Notes under the pieces: generated by a model
Seen by the model: only the letters and a program-made list of their open reading frames with translations
The model's database searches: none
What the model was told of the DNA's origin: nothing
Program-made: the position numbers and the translations under genes
Part shown: positions 43,444-54,276 of the stretch, one piece after another
Layout: every line of letters begins with the position of its first letter
Position numbering within the stretch: position 1 is the stretch's first letter
Source: Clostridia bacterium
GTDB lineage: Bacteria > Bacillota > Clostridia > UMGS1883 > UMGS1540
Length of the DNA stretch: 62,221 nt
Reading direction: 5' to 3'
NCBI GenBank assembly: GCA_045590155.1
Contig: JAZNQL010000019.1
Coordinates: forward strand, 1-62,221

Positions 43444-43869
43444 TTATTTGTTTAAAAGAAAGTCTAATGCTTCTATATACCCGTCAAAGCCTTTGCCGCA
43501 AATGGTTTTTTCGGCTATAAGCGACACATAAGAAATTTTGCGGAAATCTTCTCTTTCGGTAACATCCGAAATATGAACTTCAACCGTAGGGATTGCAACC
43601 GCCTTTAAGGCATCAAGTATTGCAATGCTTGTATGTGTATAGGCGGCAGGGTTTATGATTATGCCGTCAAACACACAAAATGCCTCCTGAATTTTATCCA
43701 CAATAGCGCCCTCGTGGTTTGACTGAAAAATTTCTATGCTGCAGCCTCTTTGTGTTGCAGCTTTTTCAATTTTATCGGTTAAATCCTGATAAGTTGATTT
43801 TCCGTAAATATCGGGTTCGCGTATTCCCAGCATATTTAAATTGGGACCGTTGATTACAAGTATTTTCAT
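43444..43869 (-). CDS. aroQ: Type II 3-dehydroquinate dehydratase
   Basis: NGPNLNMLGIREPDIYG, QSNHEG, NPAAYTHTS and EVHIS motifs. Confidence 0.96.
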   Translation of the reverse strand: MKILVINGPNLNMLGIREPDIYGKSTYQDLTDKIEKAATQRGCSIEIFQSNHEGAIVDKIQEAFCVFDGIIINPAAYTHTSIAILDALKAVAIPTVEVHISDVTEREDFRKISYVSLIAEKTICGKGFDGYIEALDFLLNK

Positions 43870-45098
43870 ATTTTTTCATCTCCGAATATTTTTTCTTTTA
43901 TAAGAAGTGCCGTTTTTTCGGGGTTCCCTGTTGACACAACCGAAAAGTGCGAAAATTTTTTATACATAGGCAGGCGTTTTACATACATGTTTTTAAGGTT
44001 TTCTTCCCCGCCTTCAGATAACGGTCTTCCTTTGGTTGCAAGACGCGAAAGCTCTCTTTCCAAAAATACGACTATGGCATTTTGATGCATAATATCAAAA
44101 TTTATATCCTGCGTTACACATCCTCCCCCAGTTGCAATAACAAGCGAGCTTTTTTTACAAAGCTCTGCAAGAACAAGGGTTTCTGTTTTACGGAAGGCTT
44201 GCTCTCCGTCCTTCTGTATAATTTCGGCAGGGGTTTTGTAAAGCTTTGTAATTTCCTCGTCACTATCTGCAAATTCTCTTTCCAAAAGCTTTGCAAGACA
44301 TTTTGAAACTGTTGTTTTGCCAGAGCCTGGCATCCCTACAAGAATTATATTTTTTGTCTGTCTTTCTATCTTCTTACGTATTTCGTTTATTTTTTCATCG
44401 CAAATTTTTTTACCCGTAAAGATTTCGCAAGCCTTTTTTGCCTGTGAAACAAGCATGGGAAGTCCGTTTGCCGTTTTTATTCCCATTTTTTGTGCATCGG
44501 CAATTATTTTTGTGCGCGCAGGGTTATATATTACATCAATTACTGCTTCGCAGTTTTTAAACAGTGTTATGTTAATAGGTGCTTTATCAGTATCAGGATA
44601 CATACCTACGGGGGTTGCGTTCACTATAATCTGTGCATTTAAAAATGGCGCGATATTTTGGGGATTGTTTTCTTTGCGGGTTAAATATCTTACACTTTTT
44701 GCGTCATTATCAACGAAAACACAAAATGCCGTTTTTGCCGCACCGCCATTTCCTATAATAACAACGTCTTTACCCTTTATATCAATATCAGCTGTTTTTA
44801 AGGTATATTCAAATCCATAGTAATCAGTATTATATCCGTAAAGCTTTCCTTCGCGCTTTACTATTGTATTTACTGCTCCTATTTTTTCGGCTTCGGGCGA
44901 AATAATGTCAAGATACTGCATTACCGTCTGTTTATACGGGATTGTAACATTCAATCCGTCAAAATCTTTATTCTCAAAAAACTTTGCCAGTTCATTTTCT
45001 TCAAGCTCGCGATATTCATAAGAATAATCGGCAAGCTCTTTATGTATCAGCTTTGAAAATGAATGTGAAAGTTTTTTTGCTATAAGATAACATTTCAT
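43866..45098 (-). CDS. aroE: Shikimate dehydrogenase-shikimate kinase fusion (AroE-AroK)
   Basis: NVTIPYK, GAVNT, NTDYYG and GNGGAA, then GMPGSGKT, DSD, ATGGG and RPL. Confidence 0.92.
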   Translation of the reverse strand: MKCYLIAKKLSHSFSKLIHKELADYSYEYRELEENELAKFFENKDFDGLNVTIPYKQTVMQYLDIISPEAEKIGAVNTIVKREGKLYGYNTDYYGFEYTLKTADIDIKGKDVVIIGNGGAAKTAFCVFVDNDAKSVRYLTRKENNPQNIAPFLNAQIIVNATPVGMYPDTDKAPINITLFKNCEAVIDVIYNPARTKIIADAQKMGIKTANGLPMLVSQAKKACEIFTGKKICDEKINEIRKKIERQTKNIILVGMPGSGKTTVSKCLAKLLEREFADSDEEITKLYKTPAEIIQKDGEQAFRKTETLVLAELCKKSSLVIATGGGCVTQDINFDIMHQNAIVVFLERELSRLATKGRPLSEGGEENLKNMYVKRLPMYKKFSHFSVVSTGNPEKTALLIKEKIFGDEKI

Positions 45099-45114
45099 TA
45101 TTATCAAATCCTTA

Positions 45115-46263
45115 TTATGCTTCTCTGTAACTTCCGAGATATTTTATATTTTTTTCTCCCAAAGAGAGTTCAAGCTGGTCTATAATAACAGGAAGTTTTT
45201 CGGAATAAACCGAAATATCCAAATCAAAATAAAACATAAACTCAAAATCGCTTTCGGGGATGGGTCGGCTTTCGAGTTTTATAATATTTATCCCAAACGC
45301 ATAAAACTGGGATATTACACTGTAAAGTGCTCCTGCCCTATGGGGTGTGCGTATTAAAAGACTGGTTCTGTCGGCACCGGGATAAATTTCAAGCTCTTTT
45401 GAAAAACAAATAAATCTTGTATAGTTATTTGAAGTGTTTTGTACTCCCTGTTTTATAATTTCAAGTCCGTATTGCAAAGAACATTCTTCCGACGATAATG
45501 CCGCAATATCTCCTCTTTCGGAATCGGCAACTTTTTTTGCCGCAATAGCCGTATTTTCGCATTCTGTTATCTTTACGTTTTTGCCTAAAGATTCCAAAAA
45601 TTTACTGCACTGGCTTATTGCCTGGGGATGCGAAAAAATTTCTTTTATGTCTTCTGCTTTGGTGCCTTTTTTTGCGAGCAGACTATGTGAAATCTGCATT
45701 TTTGTGCTGCGAACAATGTTGAATTTATACTCGCTCATTAAGTTATATATCTGTGTTACACTGCCTGCGCTGCTGTTTTCGAGCGGAACTATACCGTAAC
45801 GGCAAAGACCGCTATCTACTGCCGCAAATACTGCTTCAAAGGTCTGGCAGTACATTATTGATGGCTTTGCAAACATTTTTCTGCAGGCGTGCGAGGAATG
45901 TGCCCCTTCTATTCCCTGGCAGGCTACTATTGCCTTTTCAGGGAATAGCTTTTCTGTTTTTTCTGTCGCTTCCTTTATTGCAGAGGAAAGTCCCGAAGGC
46001 GGTGCTATATGCTTGCTTTGATAAGCTTTGCTTATTTCAAGCACCGAGTTATAAAGATTTCTTGTATAATCGCCGTATGTTTCTCCTGCAAGTTCTTCTA
46101 CTTTTTCAAGAAGCTTGCGTTCTCTTTCGGCATCATACACAGAAATTCCGTTTTCTTTTTTGTATTGTGCAACCTCTTTTGCAGTTTCCATTCTTTTAAC
46201 AAACAAATCTACAATCTGTTTGTCTATACTGTCAATTTGTTCTCTGCATTTATTTAAATCCAT
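45115..46263 (-). CDS. pheA: Chorismate mutase / prephenate dehydratase with ACT domain
   Basis: REQIDSID..KRM, PLENSSAGSV, SHPQA, NYTRF and KLESRP motifs. Confidence 0.94.
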   Translation of the reverse strand: MDLNKCREQIDSIDKQIVDLFVKRMETAKEVAQYKKENGISVYDAERERKLLEKVEELAGETYGDYTRNLYNSVLEISKAYQSKHIAPPSGLSSAIKEATEKTEKLFPEKAIVACQGIEGAHSSHACRKMFAKPSIMYCQTFEAVFAAVDSGLCRYGIVPLENSSAGSVTQIYNLMSEYKFNIVRSTKMQISHSLLAKKGTKAEDIKEIFSHPQAISQCSKFLESLGKNVKITECENTAIAAKKVADSERGDIAALSSEECSLQYGLEIIKQGVQNTSNNYTRFICFSKELEIYPGADRTSLLIRTPHRAGALYSVISQFYAFGINIIKLESRPIPESDFEFMFYFDLDISVYSEKLPVIIDQLELSLGEKNIKYLGSYREA

Positions 46264-46264
46264 T

Positions 46265-47347
46265 TTATTTTCCTTCTTTCAATAATATATCTGCTATTAC
46301 TATTGCTGCTGCCGCTTCAACACATACTGCGGCACGCTTTACTATACAGGGATCGTGTCTGCCCGAAATTACAAGCTCGCATTCTTCTTTTTTGGAAAGT
46401 GAAATGCTTTTTTGTTTTTTCCCTATTGACGGGGTAGGCTTAAATGCAACATTGAATATTATGGGCATCCCCGAAGAAATACCTCCTAAAATTCCACCGT
46501 GGTTATTGGTTGAAGTACGTATTTTTCCGTCTTCCCCTATTTCAAACGGATCGTTATTCTGGCTTCCCAAAAGTTTTGTGCACAAAAAACCATTGCCGAA
46601 TTCTATTCCCTTTACTGCAGGAATTGCAAATACAGCAGATGAAATTTTGCCTTCAAGTCCGCCAAAAAGTGCGTCCCCAATGCCTTCCGGCATATTGCAT
46701 ATTGCACACTCAACGCTTCCGCCCACACTATCAGCACAAAGCTTTGCTTTTCGTATTTCTTCCTTCATAAGTTCTCCCTTTTCGTCGTTTAATACAGGGA
46801 AATCTTTTGCTTTTGGGAAGTCCTTTTCTGTTACACGGCAAGGGTCAAACATATCGTCGCTGACATTGCCTATTGAACTAATGTGAGTTCCTATATATAT
46901 TCCTTTTTCTTCTAAAAGTTGTTTACAGATGCCACCTGCTATACATATATTTGCAGTTAATCTGCCCGAAAACTGACCGCCGCCCGAAATATCTCTTGCA
47001 TCGCCAAACTTTGCCCATGCAGCATAATCTGCGTGCGAAGGTCTTGGTACGTCTTTTAAATTATCATAATCCTTTGAGCGTGTGTTTGTGTTTTCGATTA
47101 TTGCCGTCAAGGGTGCACCGCATACTATTCCGTCTACAAGCCCCGACACAATGTTTACTTTATCGGCTTCTTTACGGGTTGTAGAAAACTCGTCGCATCC
47201 GGGGGCACGTCTTGACATAAAAGAAGCAAGCTTTTCTTCATCAATTTTAAATCCCGTGGGCAAATTTTCTATAACAACGCCCATCTTTTCGGAATGTGAT
47301 TGCCCGAAAACTGTTATTTTTATATTTTCTCCAAACGAAAAACTCAT
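46265..47347 (-). CDS. aroC: Chorismate synthase
   Basis: FGQSHS, PRPSHAD, GGQFSGR, GGILGGIS, KPTPSI and GRHDPCI motifs. Confidence 0.96.
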   Translation of the reverse strand: MSFSFGENIKITVFGQSHSEKMGVVIENLPTGFKIDEEKLASFMSRRAPGCDEFSTTRKEADKVNIVSGLVDGIVCGAPLTAIIENTNTRSKDYDNLKDVPRPSHADYAAWAKFGDARDISGGGQFSGRLTANICIAGGICKQLLEEKGIYIGTHISSIGNVSDDMFDPCRVTEKDFPKAKDFPVLNDEKGELMKEEIRKAKLCADSVGGSVECAICNMPEGIGDALFGGLEGKISSAVFAIPAVKGIEFGNGFLCTKLLGSQNNDPFEIGEDGKIRTSTNNHGGILGGISSGMPIIFNVAFKPTPSIGKKQKSISLSKKEECELVISGRHDPCIVKRAAVCVEAAAAIVIADILLKEGK

Positions 47348-48606
47348 TTTACTTCACCTCCCAAATCTTTGAATTTCTGATAAAAATCAGGGTATGATTT
47401 TTCTACCGCCTCTGCCTTTTCTATTATTACATCTCCCTTTGTTACCAATGCCGCTATTGCCGCACTCATTGCAATTCTGTGGTCATTTGCGCTGTGTACT
47501 TTACCGCCAGAAAGGGGATGTCCTTCTACTGTTATTGTGTTTTCGTCTGCCCATATTTTCCCGCCCAGGGCAGTTATTAAATTTACTGTGCTTTCTACTC
47601 TGTCGCTTTCTTTTGCACGAAGTCTTTCAATATTATAAAATACCGTTTTGCCTTTTGCCGAGCTTGCCGCTACACAGAGTATGGGAACAATATCAGGGAT
47701 ATCTTTGGCATCAATTTCTGTTCCCGAAAGATTTGATTTATATACAAAAACAGAATTTTGATTTCTTACTATTTTTGCTCCCATACAAGAAAGTATATCT
47801 ATAATTTTGCTGTCGCCCTGAAGACTTTCTTTTAAAAGGTTTGTGCATTCAATTTTATCTCGGCTCCCTATTGCCCCTGCTACAAGCCAGAACGCCGCAT
47901 TTGAATAATCGCCCTCTATTACAATATCTCCGTTTGATTTATAGCCCCCTTCATTTATTATATAACCGTTTTCTGTTTTTTGGACATTTATTCCAAACTT
48001 TTGTTGCATATTGGTTGTTATATCTATATAGGGTGCGCTTTGTAGGTTGCCTTTTATTTTTATGCTTCCGCCCGAAAACCCAAGTGCAAACAAAAGACCT
48101 GTTATAAACTGGGAGCTTATATCCCCTTCGATTTCAAAATCATAAGTTTTAATCTTGCCCTCCATAAACAAGGGTAAAAACGAATCGTCAGGATGAGTAA
48201 TTTTTACTCCGTGTGCTCTTAGCTGATTTATCAAAGCCGCAAGCGGGCGTTTGCCAAGTCTTTGTGCTCCAATAAATTTGCACTTTTTGCCTAAAGCTGC
48301 TGCAAAAGGAAGCATAAAGCGCAAGGTAGAACCGCTCTCGCCGCAATCGAGCACACATTCTTTACCATCGTTTTTTGCAGTGTCTATGGGAGTTACCAAA
48401 ACATAATCCTCATAAAACTCGAACTCTGCGCCGAGTGCTTTTAAACAGTTTATTGTTGCCTCTATATCCTTGGAAAAGGATTTACAAAATATTTTTACAG
48501 GCTTATCTGATGCTGCGGCACAAATAAGCGCACGGTGCATATATGATTTTGACGGCGGTGCAACTATTTTTCCGCCTAAACTTGAAGGTAAAATTTTAAC
48601 TTTCAT
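47344..48606 (-). CDS. aroA: EPSP synthase
   Basis: PPSKSYMHR, ESGSTLRF, SSQFITGLL, LRAKESDR, DHRIAM and KSYPDF motifs. Confidence 0.96.
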   Translation of the reverse strand: MKVKILPSSLGGKIVAPPSKSYMHRALICAAASDKPVKIFCKSFSKDIEATINCLKALGAEFEFYEDYVLVTPIDTAKNDGKECVLDCGESGSTLRFMLPFAAALGKKCKFIGAQRLGKRPLAALINQLRAHGVKITHPDDSFLPLFMEGKIKTYDFEIEGDISSQFITGLLFALGFSGGSIKIKGNLQSAPYIDITTNMQQKFGINVQKTENGYIINEGGYKSNGDIVIEGDYSNAAFWLVAGAIGSRDKIECTNLLKESLQGDSKIIDILSCMGAKIVRNQNSVFVYKSNLSGTEIDAKDIPDIVPILCVAASSAKGKTVFYNIERLRAKESDRVESTVNLITALGGKIWADENTITVEGHPLSGGKVHSANDHRIAMSAAIAALVTKGDVIIEKAEAVEKSYPDFYQKFKDLGGEVK

Positions 48607-49661
48607 TTTTGCTCAAGTCCTTCTTTAAATATATCAAAAAGTTCTTCTTCGCTTACCTTTATGACGTCGCATTCTCCCACAGCTTTTGGAACAACAATGT
48701 TTATTCCGTCATTTTGGGCTTTTTTATCGTTTTTTGCAATTTTCAAAAGCTTCTCTGCCCCAAAGTTACACTCTGTTTCTAACGAAAAAATGTCGAGCAT
48801 CTTTTTTAAACTGTCGAGGGTTCCCTTTTTACAAAGTCCTCTTTTTTCAAATGCGTTTGTTATAATATACATTCCCATTGCAACCGCTCTGCCGTGAGAT
48901 ATTTTATATTCTGACAATGTTTCAATTGCGTGTCCTATTGTATGTCCGAAATTTAAAATACGTCTTATTCCGCCTTCAAACTCGTCCTCTGTTACAACGT
49001 CTGTTTTTATCTGTATGCATCTTGAAATAATTTCTTCAAGATTTTTTTGTGCATCTTCTAAAATAAGTTTTTCGATATCAAATCCGCGTATCATTGCATA
49101 TTTTATTACCTCTGCCATACCATCGGAAAAATATTCTGAAGGCAGGGTTTTAAGTGTGTCAATATCAAAAAATACTGCTTTTGGCTGATAAAATGCTCCT
49201 GCCAGATTTTTACCACAGTCTAAATCTATCCCTGTTTTTCCTCCAACCGAGGAATCAACTGCCGACAAAAGAGACGTTGGTATGCCGATAAAATTTATAC
49301 CTCTCATATAAGCCGATGCCGAAAAGCCCGTTATATCTCCCACAACTCCGCCACCGAGGGCAAAAAGTGTGTCGTCTCTTGTAAATCGGTTTTTAGCAAG
49401 GAAGTTTAATATGCCGGCAAAGGTGGTCATATTTTTTGAGGCTTCTCCTGCCGAAAACACATATTCAAAAACACTGAAACCGCATTTTTCAAGCGAAGCT
49501 TTTACCCTTTCCATATAAAGAGGGGCAACATTTGTATCGCTTACAACACAGGCTTTGCCCGCTTTCACAAGACCTTTTGAAAGCGGGCCTATATTATCTA
49601 TAATCCCTCTTTCAATTATAACATCATATTCTGTTGAAACTTTTACACTTATCTTTTTCAT
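48603..49661 (-). CDS. aroB: 3-dehydroquinate synthase
   Basis: GGGVVGD, DSSVGGKTG, AEVIKY, LNFGHTIGHAIE and DKK motifs. Confidence 0.96.
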   Translation of the reverse strand: MKKISVKVSTEYDVIIERGIIDNIGPLSKGLVKAGKACVVSDTNVAPLYMERVKASLEKCGFSVFEYVFSAGEASKNMTTFAGILNFLAKNRFTRDDTLFALGGGVVGDITGFSASAYMRGINFIGIPTSLLSAVDSSVGGKTGIDLDCGKNLAGAFYQPKAVFFDIDTLKTLPSEYFSDGMAEVIKYAMIRGFDIEKLILEDAQKNLEEIISRCIQIKTDVVTEDEFEGGIRRILNFGHTIGHAIETLSEYKISHGRAVAMGMYIITNAFEKRGLCKKGTLDSLKKMLDIFSLETECNFGAEKLLKIAKNDKKAQNDGINIVVPKAVGECDVIKVSEEELFDIFKEGLEQK

Positions 49662-49662
49662 A

Positions 49663-50493
49663 TTAACCTATGCTTTCTTTAATTTGCGAACCTTCAAGCA
49701 AAAGCTTTTCAAGCTTTTCTGTATCGTTATTTTCTATGGCATTTTTATAGCTTTGAAGATTTGTTATAATATTTTCTATTTCAAACATAATATTTTCTTT
49801 ATTGTCCATAAAAAGCTCTGCCCACATTTTGGGGTTAAGCTTTGCAACTCGGGTTAAATCCTTATAGCTTCCTGCTGAAAAGCCTTTGTGCACCTGTGCG
49901 TTAGGACTTTTTACATAAGCATTTGAAACTATATGCGCAAGCTGTGATGTGAAGGCTATAATTTTATCGTGCTCCTCGGCACTTGTTATCGTAACATTTT
50001 TAAAGCCTATTTTTAAAAGGATTTCTTTAAGATTTTGCAAAGTTTCGATTTTAATGTCCTTTGGCGGAACTAGAATCATTCCCGCACCCGAAAACATTGA
50101 AGCTTTGGAATGGGAAAAACCCGAATGCTGTGTGCCGGCCATAGGGTGCCCGCCGATAAAGCAAAAACCTTTTTCTTCTGCTATTTTAAAACATTCCCTG
50201 CAAACTGAGCTTTTTGTTCCTGCAAGGTCAATTACTACTGCGTCCTTTTTTATTTTGTCGGCATATTTTTTTAAAAATTCCACAGTCGCTTTAGGATACA
50301 GGGCTATGAAGATATAATCGCAGTCTTTTATATTTTCGTCTGTTAAAGATTCATCAATAGCCTTTTCAAGTTTTGCCATTATAACCGTGTTACTGTCTTT
50401 ATCATAACCTAAAACCTTTGTTTCGTCAAGCAGGGAAAAACCCTTTGCAATTGAACCGCCGATAAGTCCAAGTCCTGCTACCGCTATTTTCAT
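49663..50493 (-). CDS. tyrA: Prephenate dehydrogenase
   Basis: GLGLIGGS, GGHPMAG, EEHD and DLTRVA motifs. Confidence 0.94.
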   Translation of the reverse strand: MKIAVAGLGLIGGSIAKGFSLLDETKVLGYDKDSNTVIMAKLEKAIDESLTDENIKDCDYIFIALYPKATVEFLKKYADKIKKDAVVIDLAGTKSSVCRECFKIAEEKGFCFIGGHPMAGTQHSGFSHSKASMFSGAGMILVPPKDIKIETLQNLKEILLKIGFKNVTITSAEEHDKIIAFTSQLAHIVSNAYVKSPNAQVHKGFSAGSYKDLTRVAKLNPKMWAELFMDNKENIMFEIENIITNLQSYKNAIENNDTEKLEKLLLEGSQIKESIG

Positions 50494-50507
50494 ACTCTTG
50501 CCTCCCT

Positions 50508-51515
50508 TTATTTTATAGCCGTACGCACACGCTCTACCGCTTTTGCAACATCTTCAAACTGCTCGGGGGTTAAAGATTGTGCTCCGTCGCAAAGTGCACG
50601 CTGGGGGTCGTTATGAACTTCTATCATAAGTCCGTCTGCCCCTGCTGCTGCGGCTGAAAGCGAAAGCGGTTTTACAAGCCTTGAAAGTCCGCACGCGTGG
50701 CTCGGGTCAACAATTATGGGAAGGTGCGATAATTCCTGAAGCATTGGCACTGCCGAAATATCCAGAGTATTTCTTGTGTAGGTTTCAAAGGTTCTTACTC
50801 CTCTTTCGCACAAAATAACATTTTCGTTGCCTTCTGACATTATATATTCAGCACTCATCAAAAATTCTTTCATAGTATTGGCAAGACCTCTTTTTAACAA
50901 GATAGGTTTTTTGGTTTTGCCCAGTTCCTTTAACATTTCGAAGTTTTGCATATTTCTTGCCCCTACCTGAATTACGTCTACATCTTCAAAAAGCGGAAGG
51001 TGGTCTGCATTCATAATCTCTGTTACAATGGGAAGACCTGTTTCTTTTTTTGCTTCGAGCAAAAGCTTTAATCCTTCATCTCTTAATCCTTGGAAATCGT
51101 ATGGGGAAGTTCTTGGCTTGAATGCCCCTCCTCGTAAAAGGGTTGCTCCTGCTTCTTTTACTCTTTTTGCTACGTCTATAATCTGTTCCTCACTTTCAAT
51201 GGAACAGGGGCCTGCTATTATTGCAAAATGTCCGTCCCCTATTTTTACTTTTCCGTCGGCTATTGAAACGCAAGTGTTTTCAGGATGGAATTTTCTGTTT
51301 GCATTTTTAAAAGGTTCGCTTACCCGTGTTACCTGGGAAACTATATCAAGCCCTTCCAAAAGTTCTGTATCGATACGGCTTGTGTCCCCTACAAGTCCGA
51401 GTACTGTCTGATACTCGCCTGCTGAAATATGCACACTTACATTCTGACCTTCTATCCAGGATATAAGATTATCAAACTGTTCTTTTTGAGCATTGTTTTT
51501 TACTACTACAATCAT
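50508..51515 (-). CDS. aroF: DAHP synthase (type I-beta with N-terminal regulatory domain)
   Basis: IAGPCSIE, GGAFKPRTSPY, GARNMQNF, CERG and DPSH motifs. Confidence 0.95.
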   Translation of the reverse strand: MIVVVKNNAQKEQFDNLISWIEGQNVSVHISAGEYQTVLGLVGDTSRIDTELLEGLDIVSQVTRVSEPFKNANRKFHPENTCVSIADGKVKIGDGHFAIIAGPCSIESEEQIIDVAKRVKEAGATLLRGGAFKPRTSPYDFQGLRDEGLKLLLEAKKETGLPIVTEIMNADHLPLFEDVDVIQVGARNMQNFEMLKELGKTKKPILLKRGLANTMKEFLMSAEYIMSEGNENVILCERGVRTFETYTRNTLDISAVPMLQELSHLPIIVDPSHACGLSRLVKPLSLSAAAAGADGLMIEVHNDPQRALCDGAQSLTPEQFEDVAKAVERVRTAIK

Positions 51516-51535
51516 TTTTTACACACTCCTTCTAA

Positions 51536-51577
51536 AATAAAAAAATAAGCCTTGCAGTGATTTAAACTGCAAAGCTT
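51536..51577 (-). terminator. Attenuator terminator upstream of aroF
   Basis: Minus strand AAGCTTTGCAGT-TTAAATC-ACTGCAAGGCTT-ATTTTTTT, about 25 nt before the aroF start. Confidence 0.85.
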
Positions 51578-51606
51578 AAAATTTTTTTCTAAAACATAGC
51601 CTTTAT

Positions 51607-51690
51607 TTATCTGCAGCACAAATCACTTTTACTTTGAACGTAGCTAAAGTAAAAGTAAAAATATATAGCTGCAAAAACTGCTAAAGTCAT
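51607..51690 (-). CDS. Phe/Tyr-rich leader peptide MTLAVFAAIYFYFYFSYVQSKSDLCCR
   Basis: RBS AAGGAG (51699-51704), ATG at 51690, TAA at 51607; 4 Phe and 4 Tyr codons, seven of them within eight consecutive codons. Confidence 0.85.
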   Translation of the reverse strand: MTLAVFAAIYFYFYFSYVQSKSDLCCR

Positions 51691-51724
51691 GCTTTTTTCT
51701 CCTTAAAAATACTTTATGATAGTT

Positions 51725-51753
51725 ATACTAGCACAATGATTTTTATTTGTCAA
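51725..51753 (-). promoter_or_regulatory. SigA promoter of the aro operon leader
   Basis: TTGACA-17nt-TAGTAT with extended -10 TG. Confidence 0.75.
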
Positions 51754-51771
51754 GAACTTTTTTAAATTTTT

Positions 51772-52866
51772 TTATCCCAGTGCAAGACTGTTGTTTATAA
51801 GTGTTGTGCTATACATAAATAACACATCTGAATTTTCAAAATCCACAAAGTGACCTACAAAATCACTCTTTATATATCTTATGTCAACAAGTGTTATTTG
51901 TTCGTACCCTTCTAAAAGTAAGGGGGCAAGGCTTGAGGCATACGAATCTCGGAAAATTATAAGCTTTTTGCCGTTTTGAACCTTTTGGTTTTGCATTGTT
52001 ATAATGGGGGAAGCGCCTGACAAAAACATTTCGTATGCATCTTTGCCGAAAGCCTTTTCCATATTATACATTTCTCCCTCTTTTGGTGTGCCTGTATCAT
52101 AGTAGGTAACAACTGCCGAAGAAAGTGTTTCGTTTGTAAGATAATATATTTCTTCGCTCGGCACGGGCAATGCGCTCTGCCCTGCATATACGCCCCAGAA
52201 AGGTGTATTAAGCTTTTTAACTTCATATTCTGCCGATACGTCTGTACCCATTTTTTCGCCGAGTCTTTCTGCTATATCTGTAATTTTTTCCTGGCGCCAG
52301 TGGGAATCTGTTTTATAATAATCGTCTGCCGACAAAAGGTCGTTTATATCTATATACTCCATATAAGAAAGCTTTTCTCTTACACTTTTTATAAAGGCAG
52401 AATAATCTAAAGAGGGGTATCCGTTTTTCTCTGCCAGCACAAAGTTTTTATCGGGGATTAAAGAAAGATAAATTTTTGTGTTTTTATCCTTCAAATATTT
52501 TTCGCGAAGATTGTTAAACCTTTGTACTGCATGATTTATCATATCGTCATTCTGTTTTGGGTCAAGCTTTGAAAGATGCCCTTGTGCAACAAAAAGACCA
52601 TTGTTATCTTTTTTCCCTAAAAAGGTGTAAGAAAAAATTGCTTTTATTCTCCTTAAAGTGTCTCTTAAAACTATTCTGTCGGTTGCATATTCTTCAAACC
52701 CTTGCGAAAATTCGCCGTTTAATACTGACTCTTCCGAAATTTCGGGGAAGGCGGCAAGGGCTCTTCTTTCGCTTTGGGAAAAATCATCGGAAGGCAAGAT
52801 CAAAGATGCAAAAAACACAGAAAATATAATTACTGCAAAAACTGTTACTGTTAATATTTTTTTCAT
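51772..52866 (-). CDS. DHHW-family (AlgJ/AlgX-like) extracytoplasmic acyltransferase
   Basis: N-terminal anchor; SERRALA, YYKTDSHW, RDSYA and VDIRY motifs. Confidence 0.82.
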   Translation of the reverse strand: MKKILTVTVFAVIIFSVFFASLILPSDDFSQSERRALAAFPEISEESVLNGEFSQGFEEYATDRIVLRDTLRRIKAIFSYTFLGKKDNNGLFVAQGHLSKLDPKQNDDMINHAVQRFNNLREKYLKDKNTKIYLSLIPDKNFVLAEKNGYPSLDYSAFIKSVREKLSYMEYIDINDLLSADDYYKTDSHWRQEKITDIAERLGEKMGTDVSAEYEVKKLNTPFWGVYAGQSALPVPSEEIYYLTNETLSSAVVTYYDTGTPKEGEMYNMEKAFGKDAYEMFLSGASPIITMQNQKVQNGKKLIIFRDSYASSLAPLLLEGYEQITLVDIRYIKSDFVGHFVDFENSDVLFMYSTTLINNSLALG

Positions 52867-52878
52867 TTTTACCCTCCT

Positions 52879-54276
52879 TTAAAATCTGAAATATAAAAAC
52901 GGATTGAACGAACCGTCTGCCAAAAATGCCGTTGCAAGCAAAAGAAGGCCTACAAGCACAGGTATTTCAAGAGCCGATATTATTTTGCCGATAGTTTTTG
53001 TTTCTTTAATTTTTTTAACTGTATTGCGGGGCAGTGGGGTTGCACCTATAACCGCAATCAAAATTACGGTGCCGTAATTTTTTAAAGTGTATAAAAACTC
53101 TGCCGAATAAAAGGGAACATCTTTGCCGAACATTCCGAAAACTGAGGAAATTGCCTCTCCCATATTATTTGCGCTGAAAATAACAAAGCTTATAAGTACA
53201 AAAAACAAAAGATATATATGGCTTAATATTTTGTGTTTTTCTAAGTATGCTTTGATGAAAAATTTTTCAATAAGAAGTAAAACTGCAAAATAAATGCCCC
53301 ATACTATAAAGTTCCATTCTGCACCGTGCCAGAAGCCTGTTAAAAACCAGACTGTAAAAATGTTTAAAAAAAGTCTTCCCCTTCCTACTCTGTTGCCGCC
53401 CATGGGGATATAAACGTAGTCGCGAAACCAGGTGCCGAGCGACATGTGCCATCTTCTCCAGAACTCGGTTATGCTTTTTGATATAAAGGGATAATTAAAG
53501 TTCTCAAGAAAATCAAAGCCGAATATTTTACCAAGACCTATTGCCATATCACTGTATCCCGAAAAGTCAAAGTATATCTGCAGAGAATAGGCTACCGAAA
53601 AAAGCCAGTAAAAAAGTACCGATTTTTCGTTTGATGCCCAAAAGGATGAACAAAGTTCACCTAAAGTATTTGCTATTATTATTTTTTTTGAAAGACCTAT
53701 TATAAATCTCTGTATTCCGTCAGCAGTTTTTTCTATGCTGTGAGTCCTTTTTACGAGCTTAGTTTCTACGTCTGCATAACGTACTATGGGTCCCGCTATA
53801 AGCTGGGGAAAAAGAGTGATATAGGTTGCAAGCGTTATGGGGTTTTTCTGTGCGGGAACATGTCCTCTGTAAACGTCAACAGTATAGCTTAAAACCTGGA
53901 ATGTATAAAAGCTTATACCTATTGGAAGAGCTATGTTTAAAAGCCGTATTGAAAGACCTGTTACTCGGTTTATGTTATTGATGAAAAAGTCTGCATACTT
54001 AAAATAGCCCAAACAACCAAGACAAAAGGCAACCGCAATCAAAAGAAAGGCTTTTGATATTGCTTTGTCCCTATACTTTTCGATTAAAATTCCTGCTATA
54101 TAATTTACTGCTATTGTTGCAAGCATTAAAAATACATACACAGGTTCTCCCCAAGCGTAAAAGAAAAGACTGAAAATTAAAAGAACGCTGTTTTTAAGAC
54201 TTTTTGGTGCTAAAAAATAAAGCAATATAACAAGCGGTAAAAAATAATATAAAAACGAAATACTTGAAAAAAGCAT
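52879..54276 (-). CDS. MBOAT O-acyltransferase (AlgI/PatA/DltB-like)
   Basis: LPIGISFYTFQ, FPQLIAGPI, DFSGYSDMAIG, FWRRWH and GFWHG motifs; C-terminal PFLYFRF. Confidence 0.94.
   Translation of the reverse strand: MLFSSISFLYYFLPLVILLYFLAPKSLKNSVLLIFSLFFYAWGEPVYVFLMLATIAVNYIAGILIEKYRDKAISKAFLLIAVAFCLGCLGYFKYADFFINNINRVTGLSIRLLNIALPIGISFYTFQVLSYTVDVYRGHVPAQKNPITLATYITLFPQLIAGPIVRYADVETKLVKRTHSIEKTADGIQRFIIGLSKKIIIANTLGELCSSFWASNEKSVLFYWLFSVAYSLQIYFDFSGYSDMAIGLGKIFGFDFLENFNYPFISKSITEFWRRWHMSLGTWFRDYVYIPMGGNRVGRGRLFLNIFTVWFLTGFWHGAEWNFIVWGIYFAVLLLIEKFFIKAYLEKHKILSHIYLLFFVLISFVIFSANNMGEAISSVFGMFGKDVPFYSAEFLYTLKNYGTVILIAVIGATPLPRNTVKKIKETKTIGKIISALEIPVLVGLLLLATAFLADGSFNPFLYFRF

Follow-up and report, generated by a model that had tools for sequence, protein, structure and literature searches.

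A probable leader-peptide attenuator for tyrosine and phenylalanine in front of an aromatic amino-acid operon in Clostridia

A stretch of 62,221 nucleotides (nt) from a gut organism labelled Clostridia bacterium (assembly GCA_045590155.1, contig JAZNQL010000019.1, positions 1 to 62,221), called the window below, carries an operon for the synthesis of aromatic amino acids and, directly in front of it, a leader that was analysed computationally. A preliminary description of this DNA, made from the letters alone, had proposed that the leader is a ribosome-mediated attenuator with codons for both tyrosine (Tyr) and phenylalanine (Phe) and that it controls the whole operon. The present analysis supports that proposal. 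The element is very probably a transcription attenuator of the classical ribosome-mediated (leader-peptide) kind, with the charging of tRNA-Tyr and tRNA-Phe as its signal, a reading supported by an in-frame upstream open reading frame (uORF) with a Shine-Dalgarno (SD) sequence, by Tyr and Phe codons in excess of those that the search imposed, by covarying alternative helices and by an aromatic regulon. All features of the leader and the operon lie on the minus strand, are given in window numbering and follow one another, 5' to 3', as promoter, SD sequence, uORF, hairpin, terminator and aroF.

The operon occupies 43444..51515 and was identified from its open reading frames with Pfam and NCBIfam as aroF-tyrA-aroB-aroA-aroC-pheA-aroE/aroK-aroQ, the ATG of aroF being at 51515. 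The spacing among these eight genes ranges from a 4-nt overlap to a gap of 14 nt. Their products are DAHP synthase, prephenate dehydrogenase, dehydroquinate synthase, EPSP synthase, chorismate synthase, chorismate mutase/prephenate dehydratase (CM-PDT) with an ACT domain, a shikimate dehydrogenase/kinase fusion and type II dehydroquinase. Both Tyr (by way of tyrA) and Phe (by way of pheA) are made by this operon. There is no tryptophan (Trp) codon in the leader peptide of the window and no trp gene in the operon, as had been stated before. In addition, tryptophan synthase alpha (PF00290) was not found in the window genome, which is 84.6% complete; its absence is consistent with a lack of Trp synthesis, without proving it, and fits the Trp-free leader.

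The promoter, the ribosome-binding site and the 27-codon frame with alternating Tyr and Phe codons that the preliminary description had named were all located. The promoter (51725..51753) is of the sigma-70 type, with TTGACA at 51753-51748, a spacer of 17 nt, TAGTAT at 51730-51725 and a TG before the -10 element, and it matches the consensus at 10 of 12 positions. The SD sequence AAGGAG (51699..51704) lies 8 nt upstream of the ATG at 51690. From there the uORF (51607..51690) runs for 27 codons to a TAA at 51609-51607 and encodes the peptide MTLAVFAAIYFYFYFSYVQSKSDLCCR. Codons 10-15 (51646..51663) read Tyr-Phe-Tyr-Phe-Tyr-Phe and form the regulatory run, located inside the 5' arm of a hairpin, and the F-Y-F core (TTT TAC TTT) is enclosed by the outer stem TTTGCAGC / GCTGCA. 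An intrinsic terminator (51539..51578) stands between the uORF and aroF; the scan for terminator-like sites gave one, compared with 0.4 in shuffled sequence.

The minimum-free-energy fold of the leader consists of two hairpins. In the first, hairpin 1:2, segment 1 (51646..51675) is the 5' arm and segment 2 (51610..51635) is the 3' arm, with pairs running from 51675-51646 to 51635-51610. The second, pairing 3:4, is the terminator, in which a 13-bp stem (51578-51566 / 51558-51546) closes a 7-nt loop and is followed by a U tract at 51545-51539. This fold has an energy of -54.4 kcal/mol (z = -3.66), and 0 of 200 shuffled sequences were as stable. Both pairings had been proposed before, and both covary in the family of related leaders.

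A different structure appears when a stalled ribosome is imitated. The RNA was masked to the 3' edge of a ribosome on codons 11-15 and the transcript was ended before the 3' arm of the terminator; the predicted fold then holds an antiterminator at -21.2 kcal/mol, the terminator state (hairpin with an A/U extension) being at about -22.6 kcal/mol. The 5' strand of the antiterminator (51598..51627), taken from the constrained fold, is made of AGUGAUUUG, GCUGCAG and GGCU with an internal loop, so that the 3' part of segment 2 serves twice. Its 3' strand (51556..51576) comprises the 5' arm of the terminator together with its loop, and extends 3 nt into the 3' arm. In the outer part of the helix AGUGAUUUG (51627-51619) pairs with UAAAUCACU (51564-51556), and in the inner part GCUGCAG and GGCU pair with AGCUUUGCAGU (51576-51566). 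The preliminary description had given this 2:3 pairing as CTGCAG..AAAGGCT with AGCTTTGCAG. That pairing is real and is the inner part of the antiterminator, but it is incomplete, the missed part being AGTGATTTG (51627-51619) with TAAATCACT (51564-51556), that is, with the loop of the terminator and the beginning of its 3' arm. Folding the leader with segment 1 masked, which had been suggested as a check, thus gave the antiterminator only where the 3' arm was still unmade.

Related leaders were collected in two ways. A first similarity search with the leader DNA gave matches in 19 of 41 related genomes, and the loci that are truly related share the uORF, the promoter, the terminator and aroF. 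The remaining matches at L014 and L017-L022 (E 7.7e-5 to 8.1e-4) were short chance matches and were excluded from later analysis. A search with an exact-core pattern found 118 further stretches among 185,579 species genomes. The window and these 118 make up the working set of 119 loci, in which two metagenome-assembled genomes (MAGs) are represented by two loci each; 14 motif loci of the first search (among L002-L016) duplicate pattern loci. All 118 lie in MAGs, mostly from human and animal guts, which are labelled as Clostridia, Oscillospiraceae, Acutalibacteraceae, Christensenellaceae, Lachnospiraceae, Eubacteriales or uncultured bacterium, with one Bacillota and one Collinsella.

The uORF and its aromatic codons are conserved across these loci, as the preliminary description had required of a true attenuator. 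An ATG with an SD-like word, within 120 nt and without an intervening stop, opens the F-Y-F frame in 114 of the 119 loci, while four others have the ATG only and one (L042) has neither. Read in the other two frames, the core would give F-T-F-T or L-L-L-L, and these frames are opened in this way in just 1/119 and 2/119 loci. Of the 117 related loci with enough upstream sequence, 107 have a promoter-like site 19-85 nt 5' of the uORF ATG, and 93 of these 107 have an exact TTGACA. The uORF peptides have a median length of 27 amino acids (range 18-47) and contain 16.6% F, 14.9% Y (31.5% for F and Y together) and 0.2% W, Trp being present in only five of them. On average a peptide has 4.1 Tyr and 4.6 Phe, against the 1 Tyr and 2 Phe forced by the pattern, and in 108 of the 118 related peptides the longest unbroken stretch of F and Y has 5-8 residues.

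Downstream of this run the peptide gives way to RNA as the conserved object. Segment 2 is read differently in different loci, as ...SKSDLCC(stop), ...KVRAICDA..(stop) or ...NKK(stop), and in 25 of the 119 the stop lies within segment 2 itself (inside AAGTAA). With at least three readings, or an internal stop, over nucleotides that are kept, segment 2 is conserved as RNA and not as peptide. Divergent leaders that match a covariance model of the family without containing the pattern keep Y/F-rich uORFs, and their changes on the two sides of hairpin 1:2 compensate one another, as in YYYYLY with ATCTTTATTC / GAATAAGGAT; YYYYLY runs are present in two divergent leaders. By these signs in the sequence, F-Y-F is the frame under selection and very probably the translated one.

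The helices were assessed in alignment A3, in which 84 leaders were fitted to the model. It replaces alignment A2, which contained 23 additional weak matches, most of them to the opposite strand of hairpin 1:2, a near-palindrome. In A3, 97.8% of cells are paired compared with 83.2% in shuffled controls and 42-54% in slid controls. Thirteen of 18 pairs change on both sides, and the covariation score is 0.49 versus 0.19 (0 of 500 shuffles). For the terminator, all eight modelled pairs (8/8) changed on both sides, with 96.1% of cells paired; for the inner helix of hairpin 1:2, these values are 5 of 10 pairs and 99.3%. A crude scan (hairpin of -12 kcal/mol or lower with a U tract) detected the terminator in 103 of the 119 loci. 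The 16 misses are due to the limits of the scan: nine of these loci aligned full-length to the model, and a terminator is visible in the missed loci whose sequence was inspected.

The antiterminator was tested by comparing native with permuted duplex energies, the terminator loop being too unstable in the MAFFT alignment A1 for column counts. Among 100 unique leaders, segment 2 pairs with the 5' half of its own terminator at a mean of -16.3 kcal/mol, compared with -12.6 kcal/mol for permuted partners (the terminators of other leaders) and -8.2 kcal/mol for its own shuffled partner, and 0 of 2000 permutations were as low as the native set. The variable core of segment 2 and the terminator loop change jointly, as in GTGATT/AATCAC, GAGCGA/TCGCTC, GGGATT/AATCCC and AGGATTT/AAATCCT. 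In ribosome-free folds of the same 100 leaders, hairpin 1:2 is predicted in 100 and the terminator in 95, and in the stalled-ribosome folds the antiterminator (at least 8 pairs) is predicted in 99.

The genes behind these leaders define a regulon. The first downstream gene is aroF in 83 of the 119 loci, a PF04392 lipoprotein (a TrpX-like ABC binding protein) in 17, CM-PDT in four, tyrA in three, a sodium:solute symporter in two, aroQ in one and a phenylacetate-CoA-ligase-like (PaaK-like) gene in one; it was not assigned in the remaining eight, where only a 300-nt flank was available. Among NCBIfam models, the one that the PF04392 lipoprotein matches best is that of the tryptophan ABC binding protein TrpX, with 217-242 bits where the cut-off is 390, and the ligase-like gene scores 491 bits on TIGR02155, the gene being cut by the end of the locus. 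All genes of the regulon fit a response to Tyr/Phe shortage. In locus L080, where the leader (1171-1311) precedes the PaaK-like gene (1330-2439), the peptide is biased towards Phe, with 7 Phe and 1 Tyr (MFAALAVFMFFFAFYF...). Leaders before the TrpX-like binding proteins are richer in Tyr (mean 5.6 Tyr and 3.9 Phe). The codon mix may be tuned to the function downstream, the numbers being small.

The covariance model, built from 42 diverse leaders, matches 53 of the 87 genomes in the order of the window (by genus, 37/39, 9/9, 0/11 and 0/10 genomes). In an even sample of the class it matches 22 of 150 genomes (about 15%), which belong to at least 12 families. In a phylum-wide sample 4 of 151 genomes were matched, the window's own genome counted; of these matches, L193 lies outside the class and is genuine, and L194 is false. 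The genuine distant relative, L193:1381-1790, has the uORF MLESISLGTQYFIYFTFTGFNNSKGY..., a terminator and an aroF-like gene. The false match, L194 (E 4.8e-4), is a gene end with a terminator and not a leader. In locus L109 (contig CAJJZM010000003.1) a leader precedes a TrpX-like binding-protein gene in a MAG labelled Collinsella (Actinomycetota), which may be a mis-binned contig or a case of transfer.

Taken as a whole, the leader has the parts of an attenuator: a translatable open reading frame with an SD sequence, a cluster of codons for the end products, mutually exclusive 1:2, 2:3 and 3:4 helices and a terminator before aroF. From these parts we infer translation of the uORF, stalling, an either/or response to the two amino acids and the timing between ribosome and polymerase. 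Transcription would start from the promoter, and the 27-codon uORF would be translated at once. When Tyr-tRNA or Phe-tRNA is scarce, the lead ribosome would stall on the Y-F-Y-F-Y-F codons, which are the 5' arm of hairpin 1:2. Segment 2, freed in this way, would pair with the emerging 5' arm and loop of the terminator as the antiterminator, the terminator would be blocked, and the polymerase would read into aroF-tyrA-aroB-aroA-aroC-pheA-aroE/K-aroQ. When both amino acids are plentiful, the ribosome would reach the stop at the end of segment 2 and cover that segment, or hairpin 1:2 would re-form behind it. With segment 2 covered or paired again, the terminator would form and transcription would end at about 51540. 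A leader that is not translated at all would likewise form hairpin 1:2 and the terminator, and would terminate.

Several points weigh against this attenuation model. The full transcript at equilibrium favours the terminator even with segment 1 masked; the choice must therefore be kinetic, as in other attenuators, and predicted antitermination depends on kinetics. The Bacillota have been classed phylum-wide as showing 'runaway transcription', in which polymerases outrun ribosomes, in the portions of the two sources considered (PMC13323073, PMC7858274). If that class is valid here, the timing would probably require the polymerase to pause after hairpin 1:2. In 34 of the 119 loci the distance from segment 2 to the stop downstream of it exceeds 12 nt. 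Cover by the ribosome is therefore not general, and re-formation of hairpin 1:2 would be needed in those loci. The pattern also forces TTT-TAC-TTT and the inner 1:2 helix, so that both are weightless within the 119 loci, and A3, being fitted to the model structure, favours the pairing counts.

The strongest alternative keeps the same attenuator and narrows what it senses. It holds that only one of the two amino acids is sensed, and that the other codon type is a passenger, kept for the pairing of UAC/UUU with AAGUAAAAG in hairpin 1:2. The Y/F codons do sit in the 5' arm of a conserved helix, where structure limits codon choice, and the balance of Tyr and Phe does vary, from the 7 Phe and 1 Tyr of the PaaK leader to the 5.6 Tyr and 3.9 Phe of the binding-protein leaders and the YYYYLY of two others. 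However, none of the 118 peptides lacks Tyr or has fewer than 2 Phe, the mean being about 4 each, the operon of the window makes both amino acids, and the divergent members alter nucleotides while retaining both types of residue. A sensor of a single amino acid is accordingly regarded as unlikely.

In a second alternative the uORF does no sensing and the leader is switched in trans, whether by a TRAP-type protein bound to the UAC/UUU repeats, by an uncharged tRNA or by a metabolite. The UACUUU repeats do resemble a repeat-binding site, such systems are common in Firmicutes, and the genome of the window itself carries five T-box matches. In an Rfam scan of 51300-52000, however, no family reached its threshold among the 12 matches obtained at E up to 10, and the T-box (RF00230), which the preliminary description had also failed to see, gave no match. 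The highest-scoring match was the trpB motif, with 27 bits where the gathering score is 59, and it lay mostly over the terminator. Neither the Leu/phe leader RF01743 nor any of the proteobacterial Phe, Trp, His, Thr and Leu leader families is among the 12. The five T-box matches of this genome lie elsewhere (L141, L142, L143, L144 and L145, 92-153 bits). One of them, L143 (contig C2:33842-34063), precedes a gene with a PheS-like N-terminus, named by eye. For its Phe-tRNA ligase the organism thus appears to rely on a T-box, and for Tyr/Phe synthesis on a leader peptide. The strong preference for an opened F-Y-F frame over the other two also speaks against a trans-acting factor, as do the divergent members, which change the nucleotides of the repeat and keep the aromatic codons. 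Alignments A1 and A3 showed no conserved unpaired core like that of an aptamer. Control in trans with an idle uORF is therefore rated as very improbable.

A third alternative makes the product of the uORF act as a peptide, either as an arrest peptide that senses free Tyr or Phe in the ribosomal tunnel or as a small hydrophobic protein. In its favour, the peptide is hydrophobic and keeps its aromatic core across the family. Against this, the N-terminus is variable outside the Y/F run, the C-terminus is encoded in different frames or cut short by an early stop (in the 25 loci with a stop at the start of segment 2), and 110 distinct sequences occur among the 118 peptides. A sensor of excess amino acid would moreover induce, which is the wrong sign for genes of synthesis and uptake, and a working peptide is hardly credible here. 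That there is no regulation, with a chance open reading frame and a hairpin that merely ends the upstream gene, deserves almost no weight: the region is AT-rich, short open reading frames and U tracts are common in it and a scan found no excess of promoter-like sites over shuffles (2 versus 2.2 expected), but the promoter stands between the upstream gene and the hairpin and the unit recurs, with covariation, before seven kinds of downstream gene in the 119 loci and across 12 or more families of the class.

Attenuators of the Escherichia coli type, such as trpL, pheL, thrL and ilvL, work by a four-segment logic of 1:2, 2:3 and 3:4 pairings, and thrL and ilvL sense more than one amino acid. The window element resembles them in this logic, as the preliminary description had noted, and also in the regulatory codons in segment 1 and in the stop at segment 2. 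It differs from them in belonging to another phylum, in giving no match to an Rfam leader family, in its mix of Tyr and Phe codons and in an antiterminator that engages the terminator loop.

Closer counterparts have been described in Firmicutes. Stav et al. (2019, BMC Microbiol 19:66; PMC6429828) predicted two groups of 'aromatic amino acid attenuators', uORF-13 and uORF-12, in Firmicutes and metagenomes. The preliminary description had held that leader peptides are reported for few Firmicute operons; with 336 examples of uORF-13 and 1258 of uORF-12 in that report, this view is outdated. According to the account of uORF-13 given there, a short open reading frame with a ribosome-binding site has an F-Y-F core within a stem, P1, and lies 5' of a terminator stem. 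About half of the examples precede aroF, followed by tyrA, amino-acid transporters and shikimate genes, and action like that of the trp attenuator, which the supplement cites, was proposed (PMC6429828). The uORF-12 examples are described as F/Y-rich uORFs mostly before aromatic amino-acid transporters, with some before shikimate genes (PMC6429828).

The window element is like uORF-13 in having its F-Y-F core inside an outer stem with the terminator next to it. The gene context is likewise similar, with aroF in 83, transporters in 19, CM-PDT in four, tyrA in three and aroQ in one of the 119 loci. Compared by description, the motif not being among the Rfam 15 matches, the element fits uORF-13 by every feature in that account. 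The uORF-13 model, as the account sets it out, consists of P1 and the terminator only, whereas an explicit covarying antiterminator and an inner 1:2 helix formed from the Y/F codons are found here. In contrast, the account gives uORF-12 a more complex structure, in which the codons for the F-Y-rich peptide come directly ahead of P1, while here the F-Y-F codons lie inside hairpin 1:2; and uORF-12 stands mostly before transporters, while aroF dominates here. The literature searched contained no experimental test of the uORF-13/uORF-12 class.

Three further leaders share parts of this design. The uORFC-13-1 motif, of which 24 examples are known from Acholeplasma and environmental DNA only, as stated in the portion of the report used here (Brewer et al., 2021, RNA Biol; PMC8632094), also has a uORF with a promoter, a ribosome-binding site, Phe codons and an adjacent terminator before aroF. 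It differs in its run of U residues coding for at least one Phe and in its distribution (PMC8632094). The aroR attenuator of Corynebacterium glutamicum (Neshat et al., 2014, as cited in PMC6429828) controls aromatic synthesis through a leader peptide with the same F-Y-F core. That organism belongs to the Actinobacteria, and Stav et al. describe the peptide outside the core, as well as the RNA structure, as distinct (PMC6429828). Finally, the Leu/phe leader RF01743 of Lactococcus lactis is an amino-acid leader of a Firmicute (Weinberg et al., 2010; PMC2864571). It differs from the window element in giving no model match at E up to 10 and, as far as that source describes it, in its narrow taxon and its other operons.

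A switch of this kind was thus already predicted computationally in Firmicutes in 2019 (PMC6429828), and the window element is a well-supported new example. The present analysis adds to the 2019 description the covarying antiterminator, the case for translation of the F-Y-F frame, the regulon and figures for how common the element is in uncultured gut Clostridia. T-boxes, riboswitches and RNA-binding proteins are the better-known regulators of this phylum, in which the family probably offers a clean and well-conserved instance of ribosome-based amino-acid sensing; it involves no new principle. It could be of use in annotating aromatic amino-acid transporters in gut MAGs and as a test bed for the synchrony of ribosome and polymerase in Clostridia.

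A wider reading can be offered tentatively. The shared Tyr/Phe leader would be a master switch of the aromatic regulon, covering synthesis, TrpX-like uptake, the sodium symporter and salvage by phenylacetate-CoA ligase, and gut Clostridia would couple transcription and translation at such leaders or synchronise them by pausing. Sensing by codons needs the lead ribosome within a few tens of nt of the polymerase, and the prevalence of the leader would therefore imply coupling or pause-synchronisation. If this speculative reading were true, hairpin 1:2 and the conserved U-rich GAUUUGUG would act as a pause, contrary to the Bacillota-wide label of 'runaway transcription'.

A few smaller observations concern the leader and its surroundings. 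An A7 tract (51582-51588) just 5' of the terminator stem can pair with U7 (51539-51545) and lengthen the hairpin, a shape typical of terminators that work in both directions. In the ribosome-free fold, the uORF start codon and the bases before it (51695-51682) pair with the spacer after the stop (51605-51591). By this model, the pairing could shut the uORF start on finished, terminated leaders. A look by eye for the NusG-type pause motif TTNTTT gave no clear instance. Upstream of the leader lie genes for a DHHW-family protein (51772-52866; a weak Pfam match) and an MBOAT membrane O-acyltransferase (52879-54276), both on the minus strand and unrelated to the attenuator. Within the operon, the N-terminal domain of shikimate dehydrogenase and shikimate kinase are fused by Pfam in a single open reading frame of 413 amino acids (43866-45107, minus strand).

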